Shown one piece after another: positions 11,060-34,407 of a stretch of DNA of 64,000 nucleotides. The translations under genes and the position numbers were made by a program. How positions within the stretch are numbered: position 1 is the stretch's first letter; every line of letters begins with the position of its first letter. This stretch comes from an uncultured Solirubrobacteraceae bacterium (lineage in GTDB: Bacteria; Actinomycetota; Thermoleophilia; Solirubrobacterales; Solirubrobacteraceae): NCBI GenBank assembly GCA_963816955.1, contig CAWFME010000007.1:16883-80882 (forward strand), given 5' to 3'. The notes under the pieces were generated by a model. The model was not told where the DNA came from. It was given only the letters and a program-made list of their open reading frames with translations, and did not search any database.

Positions 11060-13039
11060 CTACCAATGCACGCCCTTCATGAGGTGCGACAGGGCGACCG
11101 CCTCGCCGGAGGCGCGCTCGTTCTCGTCCTTCTTGCCGCTCGCGGCGGCCGACTCGGGGAAGACGTTGTAGGCCATGTGCAGGATCTGGTCGACGGCCTT
11201 GGGCGCCAGCGCGTAGAGCACCTCGCCGAACGTCCCCAGCCGGGTGTTGATCTGCTTCGGCTTGGACCGGATCGCCTCGCAGATCAGGTCGGCCGCCTCG
11301 TCGGGGGAGATCGTCGGGAACGAGTCGTAGAGCTTGGTCGGCGCGATCATCGGCGTCCGCACGAGCGGCATGTGGATCGTGGTGAACGTGATGTTGTCGC
11401 CGATCGTCTCACTCGACACCACCCGCGTGAATGCGTCGAGCGCCGCTTTGGACGCGACGTAGGCGCTGAAGCGGGGCGGGTTGGTCTGCACGCCGATCGA
11501 GGAGACGTTGACGATGTGGCCGAACCTGCGCTCCTTCATGTGCGGCAGCAGCGCGAGGATCAGCTTGATCGTGCCCAGGTAGTTGAGCTTGACCGTCCGC
11601 TCGTAGTCGTGGAAGCGGTCGATCGAGAGCATCACGGAGCGGCGGATCGAGCGGCCCGCGTTGTTGACGAGCATGTCGACGGCCGCGTGGTCGGAGAGGA
11701 TCTGCTCGACGGCGGCGTCGATCGAGTCGTTGTCGGAGAGGTCCGCCGTGTAGACGTGGGCCGTGCCGCCGCGCGACTCGATCTCCTTCTGGACCTCCTC
11801 GAGCTTGTCGCGCGAGCGGGCGACCAGGATCGGGACGCCGCCCGCCGCCGCGATCTTGACCGCGGCCGCGCGGCCGATGCCGCTCGACGCCCCCGTGATG
11901 ACCACCGTGCGGCCGTTGACGGCGCCCTCGAACGAGCGGTCCCTGAACAGGTCCGGGTCGAGGTTGCGCTCCCAGTAGTCCCACAGCTTGTATGCGTAGG
12001 AGTCCAGCGCGGGCAGCTCGATCCCCGTGCCCGACAGCGCGCGCTGGGTGTCGCGGGCGTCGAACTTGGCGGTGAAGGCGACGTCCTGCAGGATCTCGTC
12101 GGGGATCCCGAGGTCGGCGAGCACGGACTTGCGCACGCCCTTGAGCGCCGGGATCTGCATCGCGTAGCTGAGGACGCCCTTCGGGAGCATGTCCGTGAGC
12201 TTCTTGTCGACGCGCATGACCGACTGCGGCGCGTGGCCGGCGCGGGCGAACGTGTTCATCGCCTCGCCGGCGCGGATGCCCTTCGGGTCGACGACGTGGA
12301 ACGCCTGCCCGTCGTAGCCCTCCTCGTGGGCGATGTGGTCGATCGCCGCGGCGACGTAGTCGACCGGCACGAGGTTGGTCCAGCCCCACTCGATCGAGAC
12401 CAGCGGCGCCCACTGCGGCAGCGCGTTGCGCAGCTTCTGCAGGACCTTGAAGAAGTAGTAGGGCCCGTCGATCTTGTCCATCTCGCCGGTCTTGGAGTTG
12501 CCGACGACGACCGCGGGGCGGTACACCCGCCACGCGCCCTGGACCTTCTCGCGGACGATCTTCTCCGACTCGTACTTCGTCCGGTGGTAGGGCGTGTGCA
12601 GCTCCTGGCCCTCGTCGAACATGTCCTCGGTGAAGTGGCCCTTGTAGCGGCCGGCCACGGCGACGGAGGAGACGTGCTGGAAGACCCCCGCGCCGAGCTC
12701 GTTGGCGAGCTGGACGGCGTTCTGGGTCCCGCCGACGTTGAGCAGCGCGTTCTGCGTCTCGTCGGCGGTCATGTCATAGATCGCGGCGAGGTGGAAGAAG
12801 TGCTCGACGCCCGCGAGCTTCTCCCGGTCCTCCTCGGAGACGCCGAGCAGCGGCTCGGAAAGGTCCCCCGTGACGGGCTTGATCCGTTCCCCGCCGCTTC
12901 CCCAGCGCTCGATCAGCGCGTCCAGCTTCTCGCGCGAGCCCTCGCGGACGAGCACGTGGACGTCGCCCTCGCGCTCGAGCAGCCGTTCGACCAGATGGCG
13001 GCCGATGAATCCGGTCGCGCCGGTCACGAAGTAGCTCAC
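11060..13039 (-). CDS. bifunctional fatty acyl-CoA reductase-like protein (NAD-binding reductase domain + SDR domain)
   Basis: 659 aa. N-terminal YFVTGATGFIGRHL Rossmann motif and YHRTK active-site motif. C-terminal VVITGASSGIGRA with YVASKAA (SDR Y-x3-K). The architecture matches mycobacterial Acr-type fatty acyl-CoA reductases. Strong RBS GAGGAGGAG upstream. Confidence 0.85.
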   Translation of the reverse strand: MSYFVTGATGFIGRHLVERLLEREGDVHVLVREGSREKLDALIERWGSGGERIKPVTGDLSEPLLGVSEEDREKLAGVEHFFHLAAIYDMTADETQNALLNVGGTQNAVQLANELGAGVFQHVSSVAVAGRYKGHFTEDMFDEGQELHTPYHRTKYESEKIVREKVQGAWRVYRPAVVVGNSKTGEMDKIDGPYYFFKVLQKLRNALPQWAPLVSIEWGWTNLVPVDYVAAAIDHIAHEEGYDGQAFHVVDPKGIRAGEAMNTFARAGHAPQSVMRVDKKLTDMLPKGVLSYAMQIPALKGVRKSVLADLGIPDEILQDVAFTAKFDARDTQRALSGTGIELPALDSYAYKLWDYWERNLDPDLFRDRSFEGAVNGRTVVITGASSGIGRAAAVKIAAAGGVPILVARSRDKLEEVQKEIESRGGTAHVYTADLSDNDSIDAAVEQILSDHAAVDMLVNNAGRSIRRSVMLSIDRFHDYERTVKLNYLGTIKLILALLPHMKERRFGHIVNVSSIGVQTNPPRFSAYVASKAALDAFTRVVSSETIGDNITFTTIHMPLVRTPMIAPTKLYDSFPTISPDEAADLICEAIRSKPKQINTRLGTFGEVLYALAPKAVDQILHMAYNVFPESAAASGKKDENERASGEAVALSHLMKGVHW

Positions 13040-13090
13040 CGCGTTCTCCTCCTCGGACCCTGCATGGGTCCGGGAGCCTAACTGCCCGCG

Positions 13091-13564
13091 TCAGCCGGCG
13101 CTGAGCCTCCAGCCCCCGGCCTCGCGCACGAGGGGCTGGCGCGAGTCGCGCGCGCCGTCGCGCTCGGAGGCGGTGATGCGCGCGACCGCGCGGTCGCCGC
13201 TGACCGAGATCGAGCGGATAGCGATGCCGTACTGCGGGCCGCCCTCGTCGATCCGGGGCGCCACGAGGTGGCGGGCGCAGCTGCCGCCCGCCGCTTCGAC
13301 GCGCGCGAGCACCGCCCGGGCGAGCAGGTCGCGGCAGATCGTGCGCGCGTCGCCGGCGCGCACCGCGGCGGCGTAGCGCCGCAACGTGGCTGCGATCGCC
13401 CTGCCCTCGGGGCCGCTCGTCGCGGCAGGATCGGCCGCGGGCGCGGCGGTGGCGGTCGGGGTGGAGGTCGCCGTCGGCGTCGCGCTCGCCGCCGGGCGCG
13501 CGTCGCCGTCGCCGCAGCCCGCGAGCGCGGCGGCGGCCAGGACGGCGATCAGCATGCGAGGCAT
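13091..13564 (-). CDS. lipoprotein, hypothetical (NTF2/SnoaL-like by appearance)
   Basis: Lipobox LAGC after the signal peptide MPRMLIAVLAAAALAGC, then a Thr/Pro/Ala linker and a small globular domain. Confidence 0.6.
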   Translation of the reverse strand: MPRMLIAVLAAAALAGCGDGDARPAASATPTATSTPTATAAPAADPAATSGPEGRAIAATLRRYAAAVRAGDARTICRDLLARAVLARVEAAGGSCARHLVAPRIDEGGPQYGIAIRSISVSGDRAVARITASERDGARDSRQPLVREAGGWRLSAG

Positions 13565-13623
13565 CCAGTGGAAGGCTAGGGGCCCCGGGACGGTCCCAGA
13601 CGCGAAGTTGAGCCTTCGAGCCC

Positions 13624-15177
13624 ATGTGGCGGCGGGTGGCCGGTGCGAGCCTTCGGCCCGTGCGGCGCGCGCGCGGAGAGCTGGGCCAGACGGCGGTCGA
13701 GTACGGGGGCATCCTGGCGGTGATCGCGGTCGTCTTCGTGGCGCTGTTCGCCACGCCGCTCGGCGACGACGTGTCCTGCACGGCGCAGCGCGCCGTCGCC
13801 CAGGTGCTCGACTCGGACCCGCCCGGGTGTGCCGGCGGCGGGGGCGGGGAGGGGCGGGCGGCCACGGGCGACCCGGACGCGGACACGGACGGCGACGGCG
13901 TCCCGGACGCGGCCGAGCGCGAGGCCGGCACGGACCCGGCGAAGGCCGACAGCGACGGCGACGGGCTCAGCGACCGCGAGGAGCTCGAGCTCGGCACGAA
14001 CCCGACGGCCGTCGACACGGACGGCGACGGCGCGCTCGACGGGCAGGAGCTCGAGGCCGACTCGGATCTGTTCGCGACCGACACGGACGGCGACGGCCAC
14101 CCCGACGGGGACGACGGCGACCCGCTCACCTACGACGGCGGCGCCGACGACGCCGTCGCGGGCTTCGTCTGCGGCGACTCGTCCGCGCTGTTCTGCCCGG
14201 ACGAGGACGCGGGGTCGCGCGGCACTACGGAGTACATCTTCGGCCAGATCGCGAGCGGGCTGCTCGCGCTGGGCGACGTCCGCGACGGCATCGACGCGCT
14301 CGCGAGAGGGAAGTTCGGCGACGCGTTCTGGGCCGCGGTGGGCATCGTCCCCGCCGTCGGCGACGCGGCCAAGATCGGCAAGAAGGTCCGCGACCTCGTC
14401 AAGAGGTTCCCCGGCCGACGCGCGGAGGCCATGGGGGTCATCTTCAAGCTGTTCCCTGAAGGGAAGCTGCGCCAGGTCGCGCTCGACGCGGCGACCGACG
14501 GCGGCTACAGCGCGCTGAAGTCGAAGGGGCTCGGCGACGACGCGATCAGGCGGCTGGCGGAGAAGGGCAACGACCTCCGGCGGCTCGCCGACAACGCGCG
14601 CCTGGGCTCGCGCACGCTCGACCCGACCGAGGCGAAGGCGATCGACGGCGCGGTCGCCCAGCACTGGCCGAGCGCCGCGATGCGCTCGGAGGCCTACGGC
14701 GTCGAGACGGCGCTGGCGGAGCTGCGGCGCAACCCGAACATCGAGATCCTCCACACGGGCCGGCCGGGCCCGGGCAAGCCGGTCAACGGCCCCGACATCG
14801 TCGCCTATGACCGTTCCACGGGGCGGACGATCGTCGTCGAGGCCAAGAACACGGACGGCGGCAAGCCGCTCTCGCGCACGCGGCTTCGCTCCACCGCCGG
14901 CGGGCAGCGGGTCACGCAGACCTCGCCGGACTGGCTGCGCAACAACCCGGAGCGCTACCTGAAGGCGCTGCGCCAGTCGCCCGACGCCGGCGACCGCGAG
15001 GCCGCGCGCCGGCTCGAGGACATCATCGACGACGCCGACCCCTACGACGTCGTGGTCGTCGGCAGCAGGCCGAACGGGCAGGGCGGCTACGGTACGCGCG
15101 TGGACGACGCGGTCGGCGAGATCCGGGCGGGCGGGCAGGTTCAGGACGTGCAGGTCATCGACGTGCAGCGGCCCTAG
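13624..15177 (+). CDS. polymorphic-toxin-like protein: Flp-prepilin-type leader + TSP3 repeats + pre-toxin linker + PD-(D/E)xK nuclease-like C-terminus
   Basis: aa 21-45 G/QTAVEYGGILAVIAVVFVALF give the Flp G-x4-EY motif plus a hydrophobic helix. aa 83-166 hold four or more D-x-D-x-DG-x-x-D repeats. aa 236-254 WAAVGIVPAVGDAAKIGKK are pre-toxin TG-like. aa 355-408 SEAYGVE...GPDIVAYDRSTGRTIVVEAK give the E...PD-x15-E-x-K pattern. Confidence 0.7.
   Translation: MWRRVAGASLRPVRRARGELGQTAVEYGGILAVIAVVFVALFATPLGDDVSCTAQRAVAQVLDSDPPGCAGGGGGEGRAATGDPDADTDGDGVPDAAEREAGTDPAKADSDGDGLSDREELELGTNPTAVDTDGDGALDGQELEADSDLFATDTDGDGHPDGDDGDPLTYDGGADDAVAGFVCGDSSALFCPDEDAGSRGTTEYIFGQIASGLLALGDVRDGIDALARGKFGDAFWAAVGIVPAVGDAAKIGKKVRDLVKRFPGRRAEAMGVIFKLFPEGKLRQVALDAATDGGYSALKSKGLGDDAIRRLAEKGNDLRRLADNARLGSRTLDPTEAKAIDGAVAQHWPSAAMRSEAYGVETALAELRRNPNIEILHTGRPGPGKPVNGPDIVAYDRSTGRTIVVEAKNTDGGKPLSRTRLRSTAGGQRVTQTSPDWLRNNPERYLKALRQSPDAGDREAARRLEDIIDDADPYDVVVVGSRPNGQGGYGTRVDDAVGEIRAGGQVQDVQVIDVQRP
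13870..14121 (+). repeat. in-frame thrombospondin type-3-like calcium-binding repeats inside the toxin gene
   Basis: DPDADTDGDGVPDAAE / DPAKADSDGDGLSDREE / NPTAVDTDGDGALDGQE / FATDTDGDGHPDGDD. Confidence 0.75.
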
Positions 15178-15179
15178 CG

Positions 15180-15827
15180 ATGGCGTGGCCACCCACCCGC
15201 GAGGCCCTCGAGCGTGCCCGCGAGGAGCTGGAGCAGCGGGTCGCCGAGCGCCCGAGGGCGCGGCTGCTCGAGCCCCTGGCGCGCACCCACCGCTGGCTCG
15301 ACGAGCGCGAGGCGGCCTCGCGGCGCTTCCGCGAGGCGGCGGACGACGTCGAACGCGTGCTGGAGCGCCACGGCCGCGAGGACGCGTCGCGGATCGCGCA
15401 GGTCGGCTCCCTGCTGTGGCGGGCTGCGGAGGAAGACCTCGCGCAGCCGTGGCTGCAGCGCGCGCTTCGCGCCGGCCCGGCGCGCGACGCCGCCGCCGAG
15501 CTGCACTACCTGGCCGGGGCCTTCGGGCCGGCCGCCGCGCTCGCGCGCGAGGCCTCCGAGGACCCCGACGATCGCCCGTACCCGCGGGCGGAGGCGATCG
15601 AAGTGCTCGCGATCGCCCGGCGCGACGCCGACGGCGACCGGGCCACCCGCGCCCGCGAGGTGTTCGCAGACCTCATCCACCGGGAGCGGACGCCGCCCTA
15701 CGAGGAGTCCGGCTCGGCGGGGCTGTCGCTGTTCGACTGGTTCGAGGAGGCGGCGCTGATCGAGGCCTCGCTGCACGAGGAGCGCCAGCCGGACCACGCG
15801 GCGCTGCTGGGCCTGCTCGGCGGCTAG
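15180..15827 (+). CDS. candidate cognate immunity protein (all-alpha, cytoplasmic), hypothetical
   Basis: The ATG lies 3 nt after the toxin TAG. 215 aa, Ala/Glu/Arg/Leu-rich helical, with no signal peptide or TM. The call rests on position immediately 3' of a toxin module only. Confidence 0.45.
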   Translation: MAWPPTREALERAREELEQRVAERPRARLLEPLARTHRWLDEREAASRRFREAADDVERVLERHGREDASRIAQVGSLLWRAAEEDLAQPWLQRALRAGPARDAAAELHYLAGAFGPAAALAREASEDPDDRPYPRAEAIEVLAIARRDADGDRATRAREVFADLIHRERTPPYEESGSAGLSLFDWFEEAALIEASLHEERQPDHAALLGLLGG

Positions 15828-17512
15828 CGGACCTGCACGCGCACGGTCCGGGTGGCGCCCGTCTCGTACGGGAAGCCGGGCGCGCGGCGGATACGCGCGC
15901 GGAACACGAACAGGCGCCCGCGCGAGCCCGCGGAGCGGAACCGGTAGCGGCCCTGGAAGGAGCCGCGGCGGTTCGTCGTCGCGTCCGCGAACGCCTGGAA
16001 GCGCCGCGCGCCGCGCAGCTTGCCCTGGAGGACGATCGGCACTCCGGCGCGGCGGACGCCTCTCAGGCGCCCGCTCAGGCGGACGGAGCGGCCGACGGCC
16101 GTCGCGCGCGGACGGACCCGCAGCGTGGCGGCGGCCCGCGCCTTCAGCGTCAGGTAGCCGTTGGCGGCGAAGCGGGCGTCGTTGGCCCGCGCGCGCCAGG
16201 CGAACTGGAGCTGGCGCGACGCCTTCGCCCGCACGGTCACGCGGAACGAGCCGTCGGACCGGGTGAGGATGCCGCGGCGGTCGATCGCCCCGGCTCCCTG
16301 GCGCAGGTCGCGCGTGAGCAGGCGAAGCTCGGCGCCGGCGATCGGGTTGCCGTCGGCGTTGATCAGCCGGCCGCGGATGCCCACCTTGCGGTTCTGGCGG
16401 ACGGTCTGGCGCGGGCGCTTGGTGTTGGAGAAGCGCAGGATCACGCGCGCGGGCTCCTTGCCGCCGGTGCCGTTCGGGGCGCCGCGGTCGGACGGCGTGA
16501 TCACGTCGACGGTGTAGGGCCCGCGGTCGACGACGTTGCCGCCCGCGTCGATGAAGCGGATCACGAGCGTCCGGCGGCCGACCTGCAGCGAGCTTGCGCG
16601 GAGCGTCTCGCGGCTCAGGTCCGGGCACGGCTTGGCGAGCCGGGACGAGCACGTGGCGCCACGGTCCGTGCGCTGCTCGCCCGCCTCGTAGGTGAAGCCC
16701 ACGTCGTAGTCCTCCGCGCCGACGACCCGCGGGCCGGCCGGGTCGGTGAGGTCGACGATCTCCACGCGCTCGATGCCCGCGTTGTCGGCCGCGGACACGG
16801 TCACCGGGTCCGAGCCGTCGCGATAGCCGCCTGCGAGCAGGCCGTCCGCCTCGACGGAGGCGCTCGACGGAGGCGTCGGGTCGGAGACCGTGACCTTCGC
16901 GCCGTAGAAGACGTTGTAGATCCGCCCGCCCGGGCCGACCTGGCACGGGGCGGTGTTGCGGCGGTAGCAGCCCACTCGCAGCAGCAGCGTCCGGCCGTCG
17001 TTGCGGTAGGCGGTCAGGGCGGGGAAGCTCGCGCGGGTGACGGTGGCGCGGGCGAGGCGCGTCGGGTTGGCGTACCAGCTGCGCTGCGCGGTGAGCCGGG
17101 AGCGGGTGGCGTCCTCGTAGTCGCCGGCGCCGGCGAAGACGACGTTCCCGAGCTGGTAGAGCGTGAAGAACGGGCGCGTCCCCGACACCGCCGGGTTGCC
17201 GTAGTCGAGCTGCCGGCTCAATGAGAAGTCGGTGATCGCCGTCCCGGCCGGGCTCGTGAACGTCAGGCCGGCGATCGCACCCGCCGCCGAGCGGGTGCCG
17301 GCGTCGACCCGGATCCCGATCAGCTGGCTCGCTCCCGGGCAGGTCGTGTCGACGACGATCCCGGGGCTCGCGAGCGCCGACCACGAGCGGTTGTCGAAGA
17401 CGGTGCCCGCCGAGTTGCAGAAGTGGACGTCGTAGGTGCCGGCTTGGGCGGGCGCGGCGAGCGCGAGCGCGGCGACGGGGGCCGCGGCCGCGGCGAGCAG
17501 GCGCCGCCTCAA
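15824..17512 (-). CDS. secreted multidomain protein, paralog A (Cys-rich N-domain, Ig-like middle, two CarboxypepD_reg-like C-domains)
   Basis: A TTG start at 17510-17512 overlaps the TGA of paralog B (TTGA). It gives (M)RRRLLAAAAAPVAALALAAPAQA/GTYDVHFC, a signal peptide parallel to that of paralog B. The upstream 500 codons of ORF 15824..19099 are an alternate frame of paralog B. Confidence 0.7.
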   Translation of the reverse strand: MRRRLLAAAAAPVAALALAAPAQAGTYDVHFCNSAGTVFDNRSWSALASPGIVVDTTCPGASQLIGIRVDAGTRSAAGAIAGLTFTSPAGTAITDFSLSRQLDYGNPAVSGTRPFFTLYQLGNVVFAGAGDYEDATRSRLTAQRSWYANPTRLARATVTRASFPALTAYRNDGRTLLLRVGCYRRNTAPCQVGPGGRIYNVFYGAKVTVSDPTPPSSASVEADGLLAGGYRDGSDPVTVSAADNAGIERVEIVDLTDPAGPRVVGAEDYDVGFTYEAGEQRTDRGATCSSRLAKPCPDLSRETLRASSLQVGRRTLVIRFIDAGGNVVDRGPYTVDVITPSDRGAPNGTGGKEPARVILRFSNTKRPRQTVRQNRKVGIRGRLINADGNPIAGAELRLLTRDLRQGAGAIDRRGILTRSDGSFRVTVRAKASRQLQFAWRARANDARFAANGYLTLKARAAATLRVRPRATAVGRSVRLSGRLRGVRRAGVPIVLQGKLRGARRFQAFADATTNRRGSFQGRYRFRSAGSRGRLFVFRARIRRAPGFPYETGATRTVRVQVR

Positions 17513-19194
17513 CGGACCCGCACCCTCGCGATCCGCGAGTAGCCGCCCCAGTAGGCGTAGCCGCTGTCGCGCTCGATCTTGATCCGGAACTGGAACGTGC
17601 GGCCGCGCGAGGACGGGTCGCGGAAGACGTAGCTGACGCGGAACCGGCCGTCGCGGCCGATCGTGCCGTCGGCGAAGGTGCGGAAGCGCCCGCGCTTGCC
17701 CGGCCGGCCCTGGGCGACGATGTCGACGCTGCGCCGCGGGCGCTTGCCGGCGAGCCGGCCCGTGAGCCTCACCCGCTGGCCGACGCGGACGCTGTGGGGA
17801 CGCGGCCGGATCGTCGCCGTGGCGCGCGCGAGCAGCGTCACGTAGCCGTTGGCGGCGTAGCGGACGTCGTTGACGTGCGAGGCCCAGGCGAACTGGTACA
17901 GCCGCGAGGCGTAGGCGGTGGCGCGGTAGCGGAACCGGCCCTCGCCGTCCGTCGTCACATAGGAGCGCAGCTTCGCCTCGTCGTCGTCGATGTCGCGCGT
18001 GAGCACGGCGACGCGCGCGTTCGCGATCGGTTGGCCGCCGGCGTTGAGCAGCTGGCCGGCGACGTCGGCCTTGGAGAGGAAGCCGATCGTGCGTCGCGTG
18101 CGGCTGTTGCCGCGCGTGAAGCGGGCGGTGATCGTGGCCGGCTCGGTGGCGTTGGCGCCGTTGAGGGCGCCGCGATCGGACGGGCTCGCGACCTCGGCCT
18201 CGTAAGGGCCGCGCTCGACGACGTTGCGGCCGGCGTCGTAGGCCCGCACGAGCAGCTTGCGCCGGCCGGCCTGCAGCGAGGTCGGGCGCAGCGTCTCCCC
18301 GTAGGAGAGCTGCGGGCACGGGGAGGCGAAGCGGAAGCTGCAGCTCGCGCCGCGGTCGGTCTGCACGCCGCCCGCGTCCGTGTCGTAGTCCTCGGCGCCG
18401 ACGACGGTCGGCGTGCCGGTGACGTCGACGATCTCGACCCGGCGGATGCCGGAGGGGTCCGAGACCTTCACGCGCACGGGGTCGGAGCCGTCGACCCGGC
18501 CGCCGCGCAGCAGGCCGTCGGCGTCGACGGTGAGGTCGCGCGGCGCGGCGGGATCGTTGACGTCGATCTCCGCGCCGCGGATGTTGTTGGCGATGTGCGC
18601 GGCGCCGGTCGAGCTGCACGGCGTGCCGCGCTGCGTGCAGCCGATCCGCACGGTCAGGCTGCGGGCGCCTCCCTGATATGAGGCGAGCGCGGGGAAGCTG
18701 GCCCGGGACACGGTCACGATGCCCGTGTCGGCGTTGCCCTCCGGATAGCCGTACCAGCGCCCCTGGCCGTTGAGCCGGTTGCGCGTGCCGTCGGGGTAGT
18801 TGCCCGCGCCCTCGATCGCGGTCCCGCCGAGCGCGGTGATCACGTGGTAGCGGTGCGTGCCGTCCTGCGTCGGGTTGCGGAAGATGATCCGCTTCGTCAG
18901 CCGGAAGTCGGAGATCGAGGTCCCGGACGGGGTCCGGAACTGCAGCGAGGCCTGGGCCCCGTCGGCGGTGCGGCCACCCGGCGTCTGGTTGAGGCCGATG
19001 TTGTCGTCGCCCGCGCAGTCCTGGTCGGCGGTGATCGAGTTCACGGGAGCGATCAGCTCCCACGAGCGGTTGTCCCAGCTGCGCCCGGCCGCGGTGCACG
19101 CGTACACCGTGTAGACGCCGGCCTGCGCCGGCGCCGCCGCCGCGAGCGCCACCAAGCTCCCGGCCAGCGCCGCGATGCCCCCTGTCCGTCTCAT
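17509..19194 (-). CDS. secreted multidomain protein, paralog B
   Basis: 561 aa. Signal peptide MRRTGGIAALAGSLVALAAAAPAQA/GVYTVYAC. Colinear with paralog A through shared blocks DRGA(T/S)CS, PSDRGA(P/L)NG, G(R/Q)L(I/L)NA(D/G)G(N/Q)PIA and FAWR/FAWA. Confidence 0.75.
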   Translation of the reverse strand: MRRTGGIAALAGSLVALAAAAPAQAGVYTVYACTAAGRSWDNRSWELIAPVNSITADQDCAGDDNIGLNQTPGGRTADGAQASLQFRTPSGTSISDFRLTKRIIFRNPTQDGTHRYHVITALGGTAIEGAGNYPDGTRNRLNGQGRWYGYPEGNADTGIVTVSRASFPALASYQGGARSLTVRIGCTQRGTPCSSTGAAHIANNIRGAEIDVNDPAAPRDLTVDADGLLRGGRVDGSDPVRVKVSDPSGIRRVEIVDVTGTPTVVGAEDYDTDAGGVQTDRGASCSFRFASPCPQLSYGETLRPTSLQAGRRKLLVRAYDAGRNVVERGPYEAEVASPSDRGALNGANATEPATITARFTRGNSRTRRTIGFLSKADVAGQLLNAGGQPIANARVAVLTRDIDDDEAKLRSYVTTDGEGRFRYRATAYASRLYQFAWASHVNDVRYAANGYVTLLARATATIRPRPHSVRVGQRVRLTGRLAGKRPRRSVDIVAQGRPGKRGRFRTFADGTIGRDGRFRVSYVFRDPSSRGRTFQFRIKIERDSGYAYWGGYSRIARVRVR

Positions 19195-31785: not shown

Positions 31786-32117
31786 GTGCATTCGGAGAAC
31801 GGACAAGCCGCGGTCGAGCTGGCGGCGCTGTTGCCGTGGGTGGCCGCGGTGCTGCTCGTCGCGTGGCAGCTCGTGGTGGCCGGCGACGCGCACTCCTCGG
31901 CGGCGGTCGCGGCTCGCGCCGCCGCGCGCGCCGCAGCGTCGGTGACGACCCGGCGACCGCCGCACGTGCCCGGCTCCCGCAGCACCTGCGCCACGGGCTG
32001 CGCGTGCGCTCCCGGGCTGACGGCACCGTGTCGGTGTCCGTGCGCGTTCCGGCGCTCGCGGCCGCGCTCGACCTCGGCCGCGTCCGCGCCGAAGCCTCCC
32101 TGGGGGCGATGCCATGA
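31786..32117 (+). pseudogene. TadE-like pseudopilin, apparent -1 frameshift near 31925-31940
   Basis: The frame from GTG 31786 gives (M)HSENGQAAVELAALLPWVAAVLLVAWQLVVAGDAHSSAAVAARAAARAAA. The paralog-like C-terminus SVGDDPATAARARLPQHLRHGLRVRSRADGTVSVSVRVPALAAALDLGRVRAEA lies in the frame ending at TGA 32115-32117. The switch falls in a GCCGCGCGCGCCGC tract. Confidence 0.55.
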
Positions 32118-33136
32118 CCGGCGAGCGCGGCCAGGCCACGGTCGAGCTCGCGGCCCTGCTGCCGTTGCTGGCGGTGATCGCCCTTGCGGCCTACGCGCTG
32201 CTCGCGGGCCTGGCGGCCGGCGAGCAGGCCGGCGTGGCAGCCGAGGCCGGCGCGATCGCGCTGCTCCAAGACCGCGACCCCGTGGCCGCAGCCCGCGCCG
32301 CGCTGTCCGACGGCACGCGCGCGTCGGTGCGCGTGGAGGGCCGCCGAGTCAGCGTCGCCGTACGCCCGCGGGTCCCGCTCGTCGCGCGGCTCCTGCGCAC
32401 GCGGGTCACCGCCGCACGCCGGACCGGAGCCCGCGCCGTGAGCCTCCGTGCCCGTGCTCTCGACTACTTCGTCGAGCCCCGCACGCCTGCTGAGGCCGGC
32501 GCCTACGTCGCTCCAGCACCTGCGGCGCCGGCGGCGCCGCATGCGCAGGCCGCCACGCGGTTCCCGCTGCGGGCGGCGGTGCTCGGCTCGCCTGCCGATG
32601 GAGTGCCGATCGGCGCGCTGCTCGCGAACGCGCTGCGCTCCGCGGCGGGCGCATCGACGGCGGTGCTGGCGGTGTGGGCTCCGGATGTGCGACCGCCGGC
32701 CTTCCGGGGCGGCCCGGCGACGCTGGCCGCGTCACGGCTCGCCGCACGGTTGTCGGCCCGCGGGCTCTCCGCAGCGGGCCGTGGGCGGTTGGCGTGGATG
32801 GCGCTCGACGACCATCCAGTCGCCGCAGCGGTGGCGGCCCGGCGGGCGGCGGGCGCGGTCGATGTCCCGCTCGTGGTCGTGCTGGCGGGCCCGCGCTGCG
32901 ACGTCGTCGAGGGCGTCCTCGCGGAGCAGGACCTCGTGGTCGTCGCCTGCGCCGAGTCGGACGGAGCGCTGGCCCGGCTCGCCGTCGCGGGCTGCGCCAC
33001 GGCGGCGCTCGCCTGCGCGCCTCCGCCGCCCGGCCCGTCGCGCTGGCTCGCTCGCTCCGGCCTCGCCGGCGCTCGCGGGCTCCCCGCCCAGGTCCGTTCG
33101 CTGGTCGGCGCGCTCGGTTCTGAGGCCGCATGGTGA
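32114..33136 (+). CDS. TadE-like pseudopilin with C-terminal degenerate ParA/CpaE(TadZ)-like domain (or two unresolved in-frame genes)
   Basis: N-terminus MTGERGQATVELAALLPLLAVIALAAYALL has the G-x4-E prepilin-like motif. From about aa 109 (in-frame GTG 32438) a Rossmann-like pattern follows (RAAVLGSPADGVPIGALLANAL, AVLAVWAPD, VPLVVVLAGPRCDVV, DLVVVACAESDGALARL). It resembles MinD/ParA topology but lacks a Walker A lysine motif. Confidence 0.55.
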   Translation: MTGERGQATVELAALLPLLAVIALAAYALLAGLAAGEQAGVAAEAGAIALLQDRDPVAAARAALSDGTRASVRVEGRRVSVAVRPRVPLVARLLRTRVTAARRTGARAVSLRARALDYFVEPRTPAEAGAYVAPAPAAPAAPHAQAATRFPLRAAVLGSPADGVPIGALLANALRSAAGASTAVLAVWAPDVRPPAFRGGPATLAASRLAARLSARGLSAAGRGRLAWMALDDHPVAAAVAARRAAGAVDVPLVVVLAGPRCDVVEGVLAEQDLVVVACAESDGALARLAVAGCATAALACAPPPPGPSRWLARSGLAGARGLPAQVRSLVGALGSEAAW

Positions 33137-34407
33137 GCATGCGCGGGCAGGCGTCGATCGTGCTCGTCGGCGGGCTCGCCGCGATCCTCGTCGGAGCGCT
33201 CGTGCTCGGGATGGTGGCCCGTGCGCTGGGACGCGAGGGCGCGGCTCAGCGCGCGGCGGACCTGTCGGCGCTCGCGGGCGCCCGGGCGATGCGGGAGGCG
33301 TATCCGCGGCTGTTCGAGCCGGCGATGTTCGACGGCCGCCCGAACCCGCGGCATCTCGACCGGGCGGCGTATCTCGAGCTGGGGAGCGCCGCCGCTCGCG
33401 CCGCGGCGCGCGGGAACGGCACCGTGGTGAGCGAGCTGGCGTTCCCGGACGCCTCGTCGTTCGCGCCGGTGCGGATTCGCGTCGCGGTGCGCGAGCGGAT
33501 CGCGATCGAGCGCGGCCGGGAGCGCCGCGCGGTCGGCGTGGGGGCGAGCGCCGTCGCGGAGCTCTCGCCGCTCGGGCCGGGAGGATTGCCGGCCGGCGGC
33601 GGCTACGACGGCCCGCTGGAGCACCGCCAGGGCAAGCCGATGCGGCCGGACGTCGCGCGGGCGTTCGACCGGATGGAGCGTGCCGCCCGCGCGGACGGCG
33701 TGTCGCTGTTGATCGCCAGCGCGTACCGCTCCGACGCCGAGCAAGAGATCCTCTGGCGCCGCAACCCGGACCCCCGCTGGGTCGCCCGGCCCGGCGAGTC
33801 GCTGCACCGTCACGGCACCGAGCTCGACCTCGGCCCGCCCGCGGCTCATGCGTGGCTCGCGGCCCATGCGGAGGCGTTCCACTTCGTCCAGCGCTATCCC
33901 CACGAGAAATGGCATTACGGCTACACGCTCAACGCGCGATCCACGCCCCGGGGCGCGGGAGACGGTCGCGCGATCCCGAGCTTCGTGCCCGGGCGCTTCG
34001 CACCGGCGCTGGCGCGCGCGGCGCAGCGCTGGAACGTGTCCGCCGCGCTGCTCGCGGCGCAGCTGTACGCGGAGAGCAACTTCAATCCGTTCGCGACCAG
34101 CCCTGTGGGCGCGCAGGGCATCGCGCAGTTCATGCCGGAGACCGCTCGCGCGATGGGGCTCGACGATCCCTTCGACGCACCCGAGGCGATCGATGCCCAG
34201 GCCCGGCTGATGCGCGACCTGCTGCGGCGCTTCGCCGCCGTCCCGCTCGCGCTGGCCGCGTACAACGCCGGCCCCGGGCCGGTGGAGGCGTGCGGCTGCG
34301 TGCCGCCGTACCCCGAGACGCGCGGCTACGTCGCCCGCATCCTCGGGCTGCTCGGCGGGATGGGTGAGCTCGGCCGCGGCGAGCTCGTGGTGAGGCTTGT
34401 GAAGTGA
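33130..34407 (+). CDS. TadG-like N-terminal anchor fused to VanY-type (M15B) D,D-carboxypeptidase and SLT lytic transglycosylase domains
   Basis: aa 5-55 RGQASIVLVGGLAAILVGALVLG...AAQRAADLSALAGARA are Tad/TadG-like. aa 195-265 SAYRS..Q, ESLHRHGTELDL and HEKWHYGY carry the M15B zinc and catalytic motifs. aa 300-385 LYAESNFNP, GAQGIAQFMP and AAYNAGPG are the SLT motifs with the catalytic Glu. Confidence 0.8.
   Translation: MVSMRGQASIVLVGGLAAILVGALVLGMVARALGREGAAQRAADLSALAGARAMREAYPRLFEPAMFDGRPNPRHLDRAAYLELGSAAARAAARGNGTVVSELAFPDASSFAPVRIRVAVRERIAIERGRERRAVGVGASAVAELSPLGPGGLPAGGGYDGPLEHRQGKPMRPDVARAFDRMERAARADGVSLLIASAYRSDAEQEILWRRNPDPRWVARPGESLHRHGTELDLGPPAAHAWLAAHAEAFHFVQRYPHEKWHYGYTLNARSTPRGAGDGRAIPSFVPGRFAPALARAAQRWNVSAALLAAQLYAESNFNPFATSPVGAQGIAQFMPETARAMGLDDPFDAPEAIDAQARLMRDLLRRFAAVPLALAAYNAGPGPVEACGCVPPYPETRGYVARILGLLGGMGELGRGELVVRLVK

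Follow-up and report, generated by a model that had tools for sequence, protein, structure and literature searches.

A conserved three-gene module of Solirubrobacterales with the layout of a polymorphic toxin/immunity system and an Flp pilin as candidate trafficking domain

Polymorphic toxins are classed by the way in which they are exported: by Sec, by the type V, VI and VII secretion systems (T5SS, T6SS and T7SS), and by others. In a stretch of 64,000 nucleotides from the genome of an uncultured Solirubrobacteraceae bacterium (contig CAWFME010000007.1; hereafter the window, ~73% G+C), an open reading frame (ORF) at 13624..15177 on the + strand encodes a protein of 517 residues that is built like such a toxin and begins like an Flp pilin. 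The locus raises the question of what this protein does and by which route it would leave the cell. Our data favour, with a probability of about 0.6, a conserved Solirubrobacterales toxin/immunity module of three genes, in which a protein of the polymorphic toxin type carries a complete Flp (type IVc, Tad) pilin as its trafficking domain. A lipoprotein gene runs leftward in this module, and the toxin gene, followed by the candidate immunity gene, runs rightward.

The ORF had been proposed in a first-pass annotation of the window, and it proved to be a real gene. Its third-position G+C content (GC3) of 0.97 is typical of coding sequence, and more than 80 full-length homologs, 46-89% identical across 94-100% of the length, were recovered when 5.8e9 proteins were searched. 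They come from metagenome-assembled and isolate genomes of Solirubrobacteraceae, Solirubrobacter and Patulibacter and from soil metagenomes, and one of them, P0055, belongs to the cultivable S. ginsenosidimutans. An alternative start codon, GTG at 13660, would give a protein of 505 residues with a leader of 9 residues, short and basic (MRRxRxxxG) as in most homologs. In an alignment of 30 sequences, with identity down to 49%, G21, Q22, E26, E356, E361, G389-P390-D391 and E406-A407-K408 are invariant, as are C69, C183, C191 and the motifs VGDxRD and VPxxGDxxK; C52 is nearly so (at least 90%). When Pfam and NCBIfam were run on the 517-residue protein and 30 homologs, the thrombospondin type 3 (TSP3) repeats alone gave a significant match. 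That the other Pfam matches are sub-threshold would fit an annotation artefact, or resemblances that arose by chance in a high-GC ORF. However, this explanation is contradicted by the more than 80 full-length homologs with invariant motifs, by a confident structure model and by the synteny of the three genes in seven loci, and we give it almost no weight.

The pilin head

The first 21 residues (13624..13686, + strand) form a predicted class III, or prepilin-type, leader that ends at the invariant G21, with predicted cleavage between G21 and Q22 and the invariant E26 at position +5. The sequence RGELG/QTAVEYGGILAVIAVVFVALF covers residues 17-42. The first-pass annotation had recognised this Flp leader motif, which is present and in which G, Q and E are invariant, although it had extended the motif to residue 45. 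G21/Q22...E26-Y27 is followed by the hydrophobic stretch GGILAVIAVVFVALF, and position 27 varies among Y, L, W, F and V in the homologs. A looser pattern, G-[QASTEN]-x3-E with a hydrophobic stretch within the first 80 residues, occurs in 66 homologs as well as in the window protein, and large relatives without this leader have ordinary Sec signal peptides instead. A Tat signal peptide or an ordinary Sec signal peptide with an AxA site was considered for the head and rejected, because no conserved cleavage motif follows the helix, whereas G/Q...E is invariant.

Residues 22-69 (13687..13830, +) correspond to a mature Flp pilin module, in which QTAVEY and C52/C69 occur together with two helices, the first hydrophobic and ~20 residues long, the second short. 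The AlphaFold2 (AF2) model places helices at residues 23-42 and 50-62. A word-indexed search with the N-terminal 59 residues returned only three matches, one of which was P0264, a protein of 89 residues that is 74% identical to the toxin head over 34 residues. Frame analysis indicated that P0264 is a separate short gene. It is situated in a Tad locus together with genes for RcpC/CpaB, a ParA-like ATPase, T2SSE (TadA/CpaF) and T2SSF (TadB/C). This locus (L007, 1-12500) also has a histidine kinase/response regulator pair, and its Flp gene is followed by one for a VWA protein that has a signal peptide of its own; assembly frameshifts have probably fragmented many of the genes in the locus.

A scan of metagenomes for GQTA[AV]EYxG gave 48 distinct short pilins, which extend 40-56 residues past the Gly; many of them adjoin a PF13400 (TadE/G-like) gene. 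A short-Flp profile, built solely from the pilin part beyond the searched motif, matched toxin residues 31-63 at 26.2 bits, with a family median of 27.4, and none of 1100 composition-preserving shuffles scored above 2.5 bits. No significant match was obtained in a search of PDB sequences with the toxin protein, and the weak matches were in the correct register, to the Tad pilins 8u1k and 8u2b in the head and to an Hjc protein in the tail. By these sequence comparisons, the first ~60 residues represent a whole Flp pilin module, homologous to authentic short Flp pilins along the pilin length. The first-pass annotation was right to call the N-terminus Flp-type, and the homology reaches beyond the leader that it had described. 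The head resembles Flp/Fap pilins such as Caulobacter PilA (8u1k) and P0264 in its short basic leader, G/xxxxEY, hydrophobic helix and short C-terminal helix. Unlike known Flp pilins, which have 40-70 mature residues and are encoded in tad operons, it bears a passenger of ~450 residues and is encoded outside a tad operon.

The Flp-like segment could also be merely a signal-anchor, uncleaved or cleaved by the peptidase, of the same toxin/immunity pair; the toxin would then be exported by Sec and tethered to, or shed from, the surface with no role for a Tad pilus. We consider this unlikely, though it deserves attention. The large passenger fits it better than it fits an Flp subunit, and ordinary Sec signal peptides are found on relatives whose linker and tail are the same. 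However, a plain anchor needs neither the invariant G(-1), Q(+1) and E(+5) nor pilin homology over the whole length including the second helix. On this evidence, the head is likely to be an Flp module that is processed by a prepilin peptidase.

The stalk, the pre-toxin linker and the nuclease-like tail

The head is followed by four bacterial Ca-binding TSP3 repeats at residues 85-165 (13876..14118, +). They had been noticed in the first-pass annotation and are supported by Pfam (TSP3_bac, E 4.7e-15). The repeat D-x-D-x-D-G occurs four times, three times in the fuller form D-x-D-x-D-G-x2-D-x2-E, and the repeats probably form an extended stalk.

The next ~160 residues (168-325; 14125..14598, +) contain C183/C191, VGDxRD, VPxxGDxxK and a helical ALDxA...GxxD...L motif, and WAAVGIVPAVGDAAKIGKK covers residues 236-254. 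An earlier word-indexed search with a profile of this linker returned two fragments only and was uninformative. It was replaced by an exhaustive HMMER search of 1.84e9 representative proteins with a profile of residues 168-517, which gave 580 matches. Linker and nuclease together form the C-terminal end of many proteins of 800-1450 residues that have Sec signals and VWA, TSP3 or Ig-like domains. A further 68 proteins matched in the linker only, and behind it they have a tail of ~150-330 residues other than this nuclease. More than 60 of the proteins with other tails are large and have a Sec signal. The linker precedes at least 10 tail families (190 proteins), and several of the alternative tails have D...ExK-like or GIY-YIG-like motifs of their own. 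P0180 consists of VWA, TSP3, linker, PT-HINT and tail, with the linker directly before PT-HINT, and P0113 has the linker and a GIY-YIG-like tail, with Imm26 as the next gene. Both PT-HINT and Imm26 are hallmarks of polymorphic toxin systems. These comparisons indicate that the linker is a genuine pre-toxin module, homologous to the pre-toxin regions of other toxins. The earlier suggestion of a pre-toxin linker is upheld by the tail families, PT-HINT and Imm26, but its likening to PT-TG is not supported by Pfam; the VPxxGDxxK motif merely resembles that family.

In one related locus (L141, 13337-14529), genes for a DsbA-like protein and VKOR are found ~2 kb downstream of the toxin module. Their position may have to do with the toxin's four conserved cysteines, or it may be a coincidence.

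The C-terminal domain (residues 326-517 and the stop codon; 14599..15177, +) is PD-(D/E)xK nuclease-like. Its predicted catalytic residues E356, E361, D391, E406 and K408 (14689..14847, +) are all invariant in the alignment of 30 sequences. In a second alignment, which includes distant VWA-type relatives, E361, D391, E406 and K408 are invariant and E356 is nearly so (at least 90%). The catalytic pattern had been given before as E(355)...P390-D391-x15-E406-x-K408. P390-D391 and E406-x-K408 are present, but residue 355 is Ser, the Glu is E356, and the spacing between D391 and E406 is 14, not 15.

An AF2 model of residues 326-517 had a predicted local distance difference test score (pLDDT) of 93.6 and a predicted template modelling (TM) score of 0.90, with an alpha-beta-beta-beta-alpha-beta core. 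Three strands come after the helix that bears E356 and E361; D391 is located ahead of the second of them (392-396), and the third (401-408) has E406-x-K408 at its end. The best PDB match of the domain model in Foldseek was HamA (8vxy), the Hachiman nuclease, with E 2.4e-3, probability 0.99 and TM score 0.52, and a restriction enzyme ranked lower in the list. The full-length model gave a weaker match than the domain alone (HamA, E 0.02). In a profile search of PDB sequences, E..PD..ExK was aligned weakly to an archaeal Hjc-type resolvase (E 0.09), and one family member showed a weak match to Mrr_cat (E 0.054). The tail has the core fold and the E...PD...ExK residues in common with HamA, archaeal Hjc and Tox-REase. 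Unlike HamA, to which it is ~10% identical, it has an extra helical insertion between strands 3 and 4. The adoption of a PD-(D/E)xK fold by the tail is well supported by the model, and the tail probably cuts DNA as a toxin.

The same nuclease tail is also found at the end of P0181 and P0186, proteins of 768-880 residues without a signal peptide. Their N-termini look like helical secretion domains of the T7SS type (WXG/LXG-like), which would be a third export route for this tail.

The candidate immunity gene and the lipoprotein partner

The toxin gene is followed, 2 nt past its stop codon, by an ORF at 15180..15827 (+) that encodes a helical, TPR-like protein of 215 residues without a signal peptide or hydrophobic segment (weak TPR_12 match). 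A homolog of this gene follows the toxin gene in every examined Flp-headed locus with downstream sequence (L001, L002 and L008-L011). It is also found behind the same nuclease tail on VWA-type proteins, with 28% identity over 173 residues (E 1e-7) in L003 and 34% identity over 62 residues in L004. Loci with other tails, including L005 and L006, have unrelated downstream genes, one of them Imm26. The ORF thus accompanies the nuclease tail also where the N-terminal architecture is unrelated, in the manner expected of an immunity gene, and it is probable that its product neutralises the toxin. The small downstream gene that the first-pass annotation had read as part of a toxin layout agrees with this pattern. 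We are fairly confident that the toxin gene and this ORF form a nuclease toxin/immunity pair.

The protein may instead be no weapon but a pilus- or surface-associated nuclease for degradation or uptake of extracellular DNA, with the downstream protein as an intracellular inhibitor or chaperone. This would be consistent with a single-copy gene and a fixed tail, with conservation across the order under apparent purifying selection, and with the requirement of Flp pili for natural transformation reported in Micrococcus luteus (PMC4322843). On the other hand, the linker is common to proteins with PT-HINT, an Imm26 neighbour or many alternative nuclease-like tails, and the downstream gene co-varies with the tail in the manner of immunity genes. 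We consider a role outside killing improbable.

The third gene (13091..13564, - strand), divergent from the toxin gene, encodes a small lipoprotein of 157 residues with a signal peptide and lipobox Cys; it has weak LPAM_1, SnoaL-like and Rv0361-C-terminal matches. In L001, L002 and L008-L011, homologs that are 41-80% identical are placed and oriented alike, and none was found beside the VWA-type toxins of L003 and L004. As a conserved partner, the lipoprotein gene is confined to the Flp-headed form. The trio of lipoprotein, toxin and immunity genes is syntenic in seven loci, and since the flanking genes vary between lineages, the three genes appear to persist as a unit. A promoter and terminator scan of 13000-16100 gave nothing useful. 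Directly downstream of the candidate immunity gene, on the opposite strand, are two tandem paralogous genes (15824-17512 and 17509-19155, both -) for secreted proteins of ~550 residues, with weak CarboxypepD_reg matches only; they are absent from the otherwise syntenic L001.

Export by Tad machinery and relation to known systems

A mechanism can be proposed from this domain order. The preprotein would insert into the membrane, and a prepilin peptidase of the TadV/CpaA type would cleave it after G21. The helix of the mature pilin would then anchor the protein in the membrane, or the Tad machinery would lift the protein into or onto the Flp filament, where the tip is the most plausible place for it. 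The PD-(D/E)xK nuclease, extended on a Ca-binding TSP3 stalk and a disulfide-stabilised linker, would kill neighbours that lack the cognate immunity protein, and the cytoplasmic helical protein encoded at 15180-15827 would protect the producer.

Several results weigh against this interpretation. The Pfam Flp_Fap model (PF04964), whose support the first-pass annotation had expected, gave the head 15.7 bits, under the threshold of 32.2 (E 0.013). P0264, a bona fide pilin of a tad locus, also falls below this threshold with 21.6 bits, and the Pfam model therefore seems to under-detect the pilins of this lineage. For Pfam PT-TG (PF14449), a limit as loose as E 10 gave no match in the 30 family members scanned. 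The Foldseek match of the tail is modest in E-value (2.4e-3) and in TM score (0.52). The nuclease character of the tip, which had been proposed before, agrees with the fold in the AF2 model and with HamA in Foldseek; the Pfam scan of the protein and 30 homologs found neither a match to Tox-REase nor membership in a Pfam REase family. The mature toxin of ~496 residues is far larger than any known Flp pilin, and its entry into a filament is conjectural. The tail is also of one identical type in every complete Flp-headed member from Solirubrobacterales, and in the alignment of 30 sequences the C-terminus is conserved no less than the remainder of the protein. The first-pass annotation had expected homologs that share the N-terminus and differ in the C-terminus; with its conserved C-terminus, the Flp-headed family is itself fixed, not polymorphic, in this respect. 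Orphan toxin/immunity cassettes and paralogs were looked for in the window, and none was found.

The surroundings of the gene also weigh against a Tad pilus. In five annotated contexts (the window, L001, L002, L140 and L141), the 10 kb around the toxin gene contain no tad gene or A24 prepilin peptidase gene, and this favours the simple signal-anchor described above. A search of the window with the A24 peptidase of L048 as sole query found no homolog. At 31786, 32114 and 33130, the window does contain TadE-like ORFs whose leaders are of the form G/QAxVE, and this indicates that the genome makes other class III substrates of the Tad type. They are three consecutive ORFs with Tad-type N-termini (31786-34407, +), with no tadA/B/C nearby. 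The leaders of the first two are G/QAAVELAALLP and ERG/QATVELAALLP, and the first matches Pfam TadE with E 1.5e-3. In the third (33130-34407), a TadE-like N-terminus of the Rv3654c type (TIGR03816, E 7.5e-5) is joined to VanY D,D-carboxypeptidase and SLT lytic transglycosylase domains, and the product looks like a peptidoglycan hydrolase headed by a pseudopilin.

Other proteins with Flp heads bear indirectly on the question. About 20 of the metagenomic matches to GQTA[AV]EYxG extend 185-678 residues past the Gly, and they belong to at least seven families. In two pairs (L075/L114 and L072/L077), the leader is short, TSP3 repeats are present and the tails show no relation to that of the window toxin; one of these tails is weakly similar to the CdiA-CT RNase A. 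In a sister family from soil metagenome contigs (L034, L048, L051, L057, L060 and L088), an internal RWRRDEG/QTAVEY Flp motif is followed by a Gly/Thr-rich spacer and a central domain. Its members have the Flp motif and the central domain in common and end in at least three different C-termini, among them Pfam Tox-REase-5 (E 5.9e-17). In the five contigs with downstream sequence, the genes behind the toxin gene co-vary with its tail, and one of these genes is weakly Imm52. Three contigs (L048, L051 and L060) have genes for Peptidase_A24 and DUF192 at a distance of no more than ~2 kb from the toxin gene, and this peptidase gene speaks against the signal-anchor explanation. The leader of the sister family is atypical, because a conserved in-frame region of four transmembrane segments precedes the Flp motif. 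These tails, co-varying genes and nearby A24 peptidases make a functional link between Flp signals, prepilin peptidase and polymorphic toxins more credible, and for the window gene this support is indirect. In two other contigs (L104 and L105), more than 340 residues of in-frame polytopic membrane sequence with an ELVLRG-like stretch precede the Flp motif, and the passenger has ~447 residues; the membrane part may be a CPBP-type protease.

We regard display or delivery of the toxin by a Tad pilus as a tentative proposal, for which the odds are about one in three. The wider proposal for monoderm Actinomycetota is at least as doubtful: Flp modules would be a general trafficking domain of polymorphic toxins, and toxins matured by the peptidase would be assembled into or onto Tad pili, which would serve as an organelle for contact-dependent delivery.

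The arrangement can be compared with several known systems. In the order of trafficking domain, repeats, pre-toxin region, C-terminal nuclease and directly downstream immunity gene, the protein is like the Gram-positive polymorphic toxins of the Sec, LXG/T7SS and WapA types (PMC3482391). Unlike those toxins, it has an Flp pilin, marked by a class III signal, as its candidate trafficking domain; its tail is fixed, and orphan cassettes are absent. The 2012 survey of polymorphic toxins (Zhang et al. 2012, PMC3482391) contains no occurrence of the words pilin, Flp or prepilin, in agreement with the earlier remark that Flp leaders are not known among the described trafficking domains. Among the top-ranked results of a full-text literature search, no paper described a fusion of an Flp pilin with a toxin that has an immunity gene. 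As an export route, an Flp pilin head on a polymorphic toxin would thus be unreported in the literature searched.

A functional module grafted onto a pilin and proposed to be at the tip is found in the modular type IV pilins PilB and PilC of S. sanguinis (PMC8179133) and in the Tad tip minor pilins TadG/KilN (PMC12075869). Modular type IV pilins have been catalogued through the T4a-type N-terminal signature, and the described examples carry adhesin or lectin modules (PMC8179133). The Kil Tad-like pili of Myxococcus have TadE/F/G-like tip minor pilins with variable domains and mediate contact-dependent killing, to which no toxin has been linked (PMC8460266, PMC12075869). PilB/PilC and TadG/KilN are T4a- or TadE/F/G-type pilins with a globular domain, and their modules are adhesins or uncharacterised; none of them is reported to have a toxin domain and an immunity gene, and in this the window protein, with its probable toxin domain and candidate immunity gene, differs from them. 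No modular pilin before it would have had the minimal Flp scaffold as its base.

With a class III prepilin/Flp head, the export routes of polymorphic toxins would come to include the Tad/type IVc machinery or, at the least, the peptidase of that machinery. The module is compact, with a toxin of 517 residues, an immunity protein of 215 residues and clear point mutants, and can be tested easily; the fusion of pilin and toxin provides a concrete and testable model for pilus-borne killing. If the proposal is true, the Tad pilus would be a Gram-positive counterpart of contact-dependent inhibition (CDI) and a candidate answer to the killing by Tad-like Kil pili, and the Tad pili of soil Actinomycetota would gain a function beyond adhesion.

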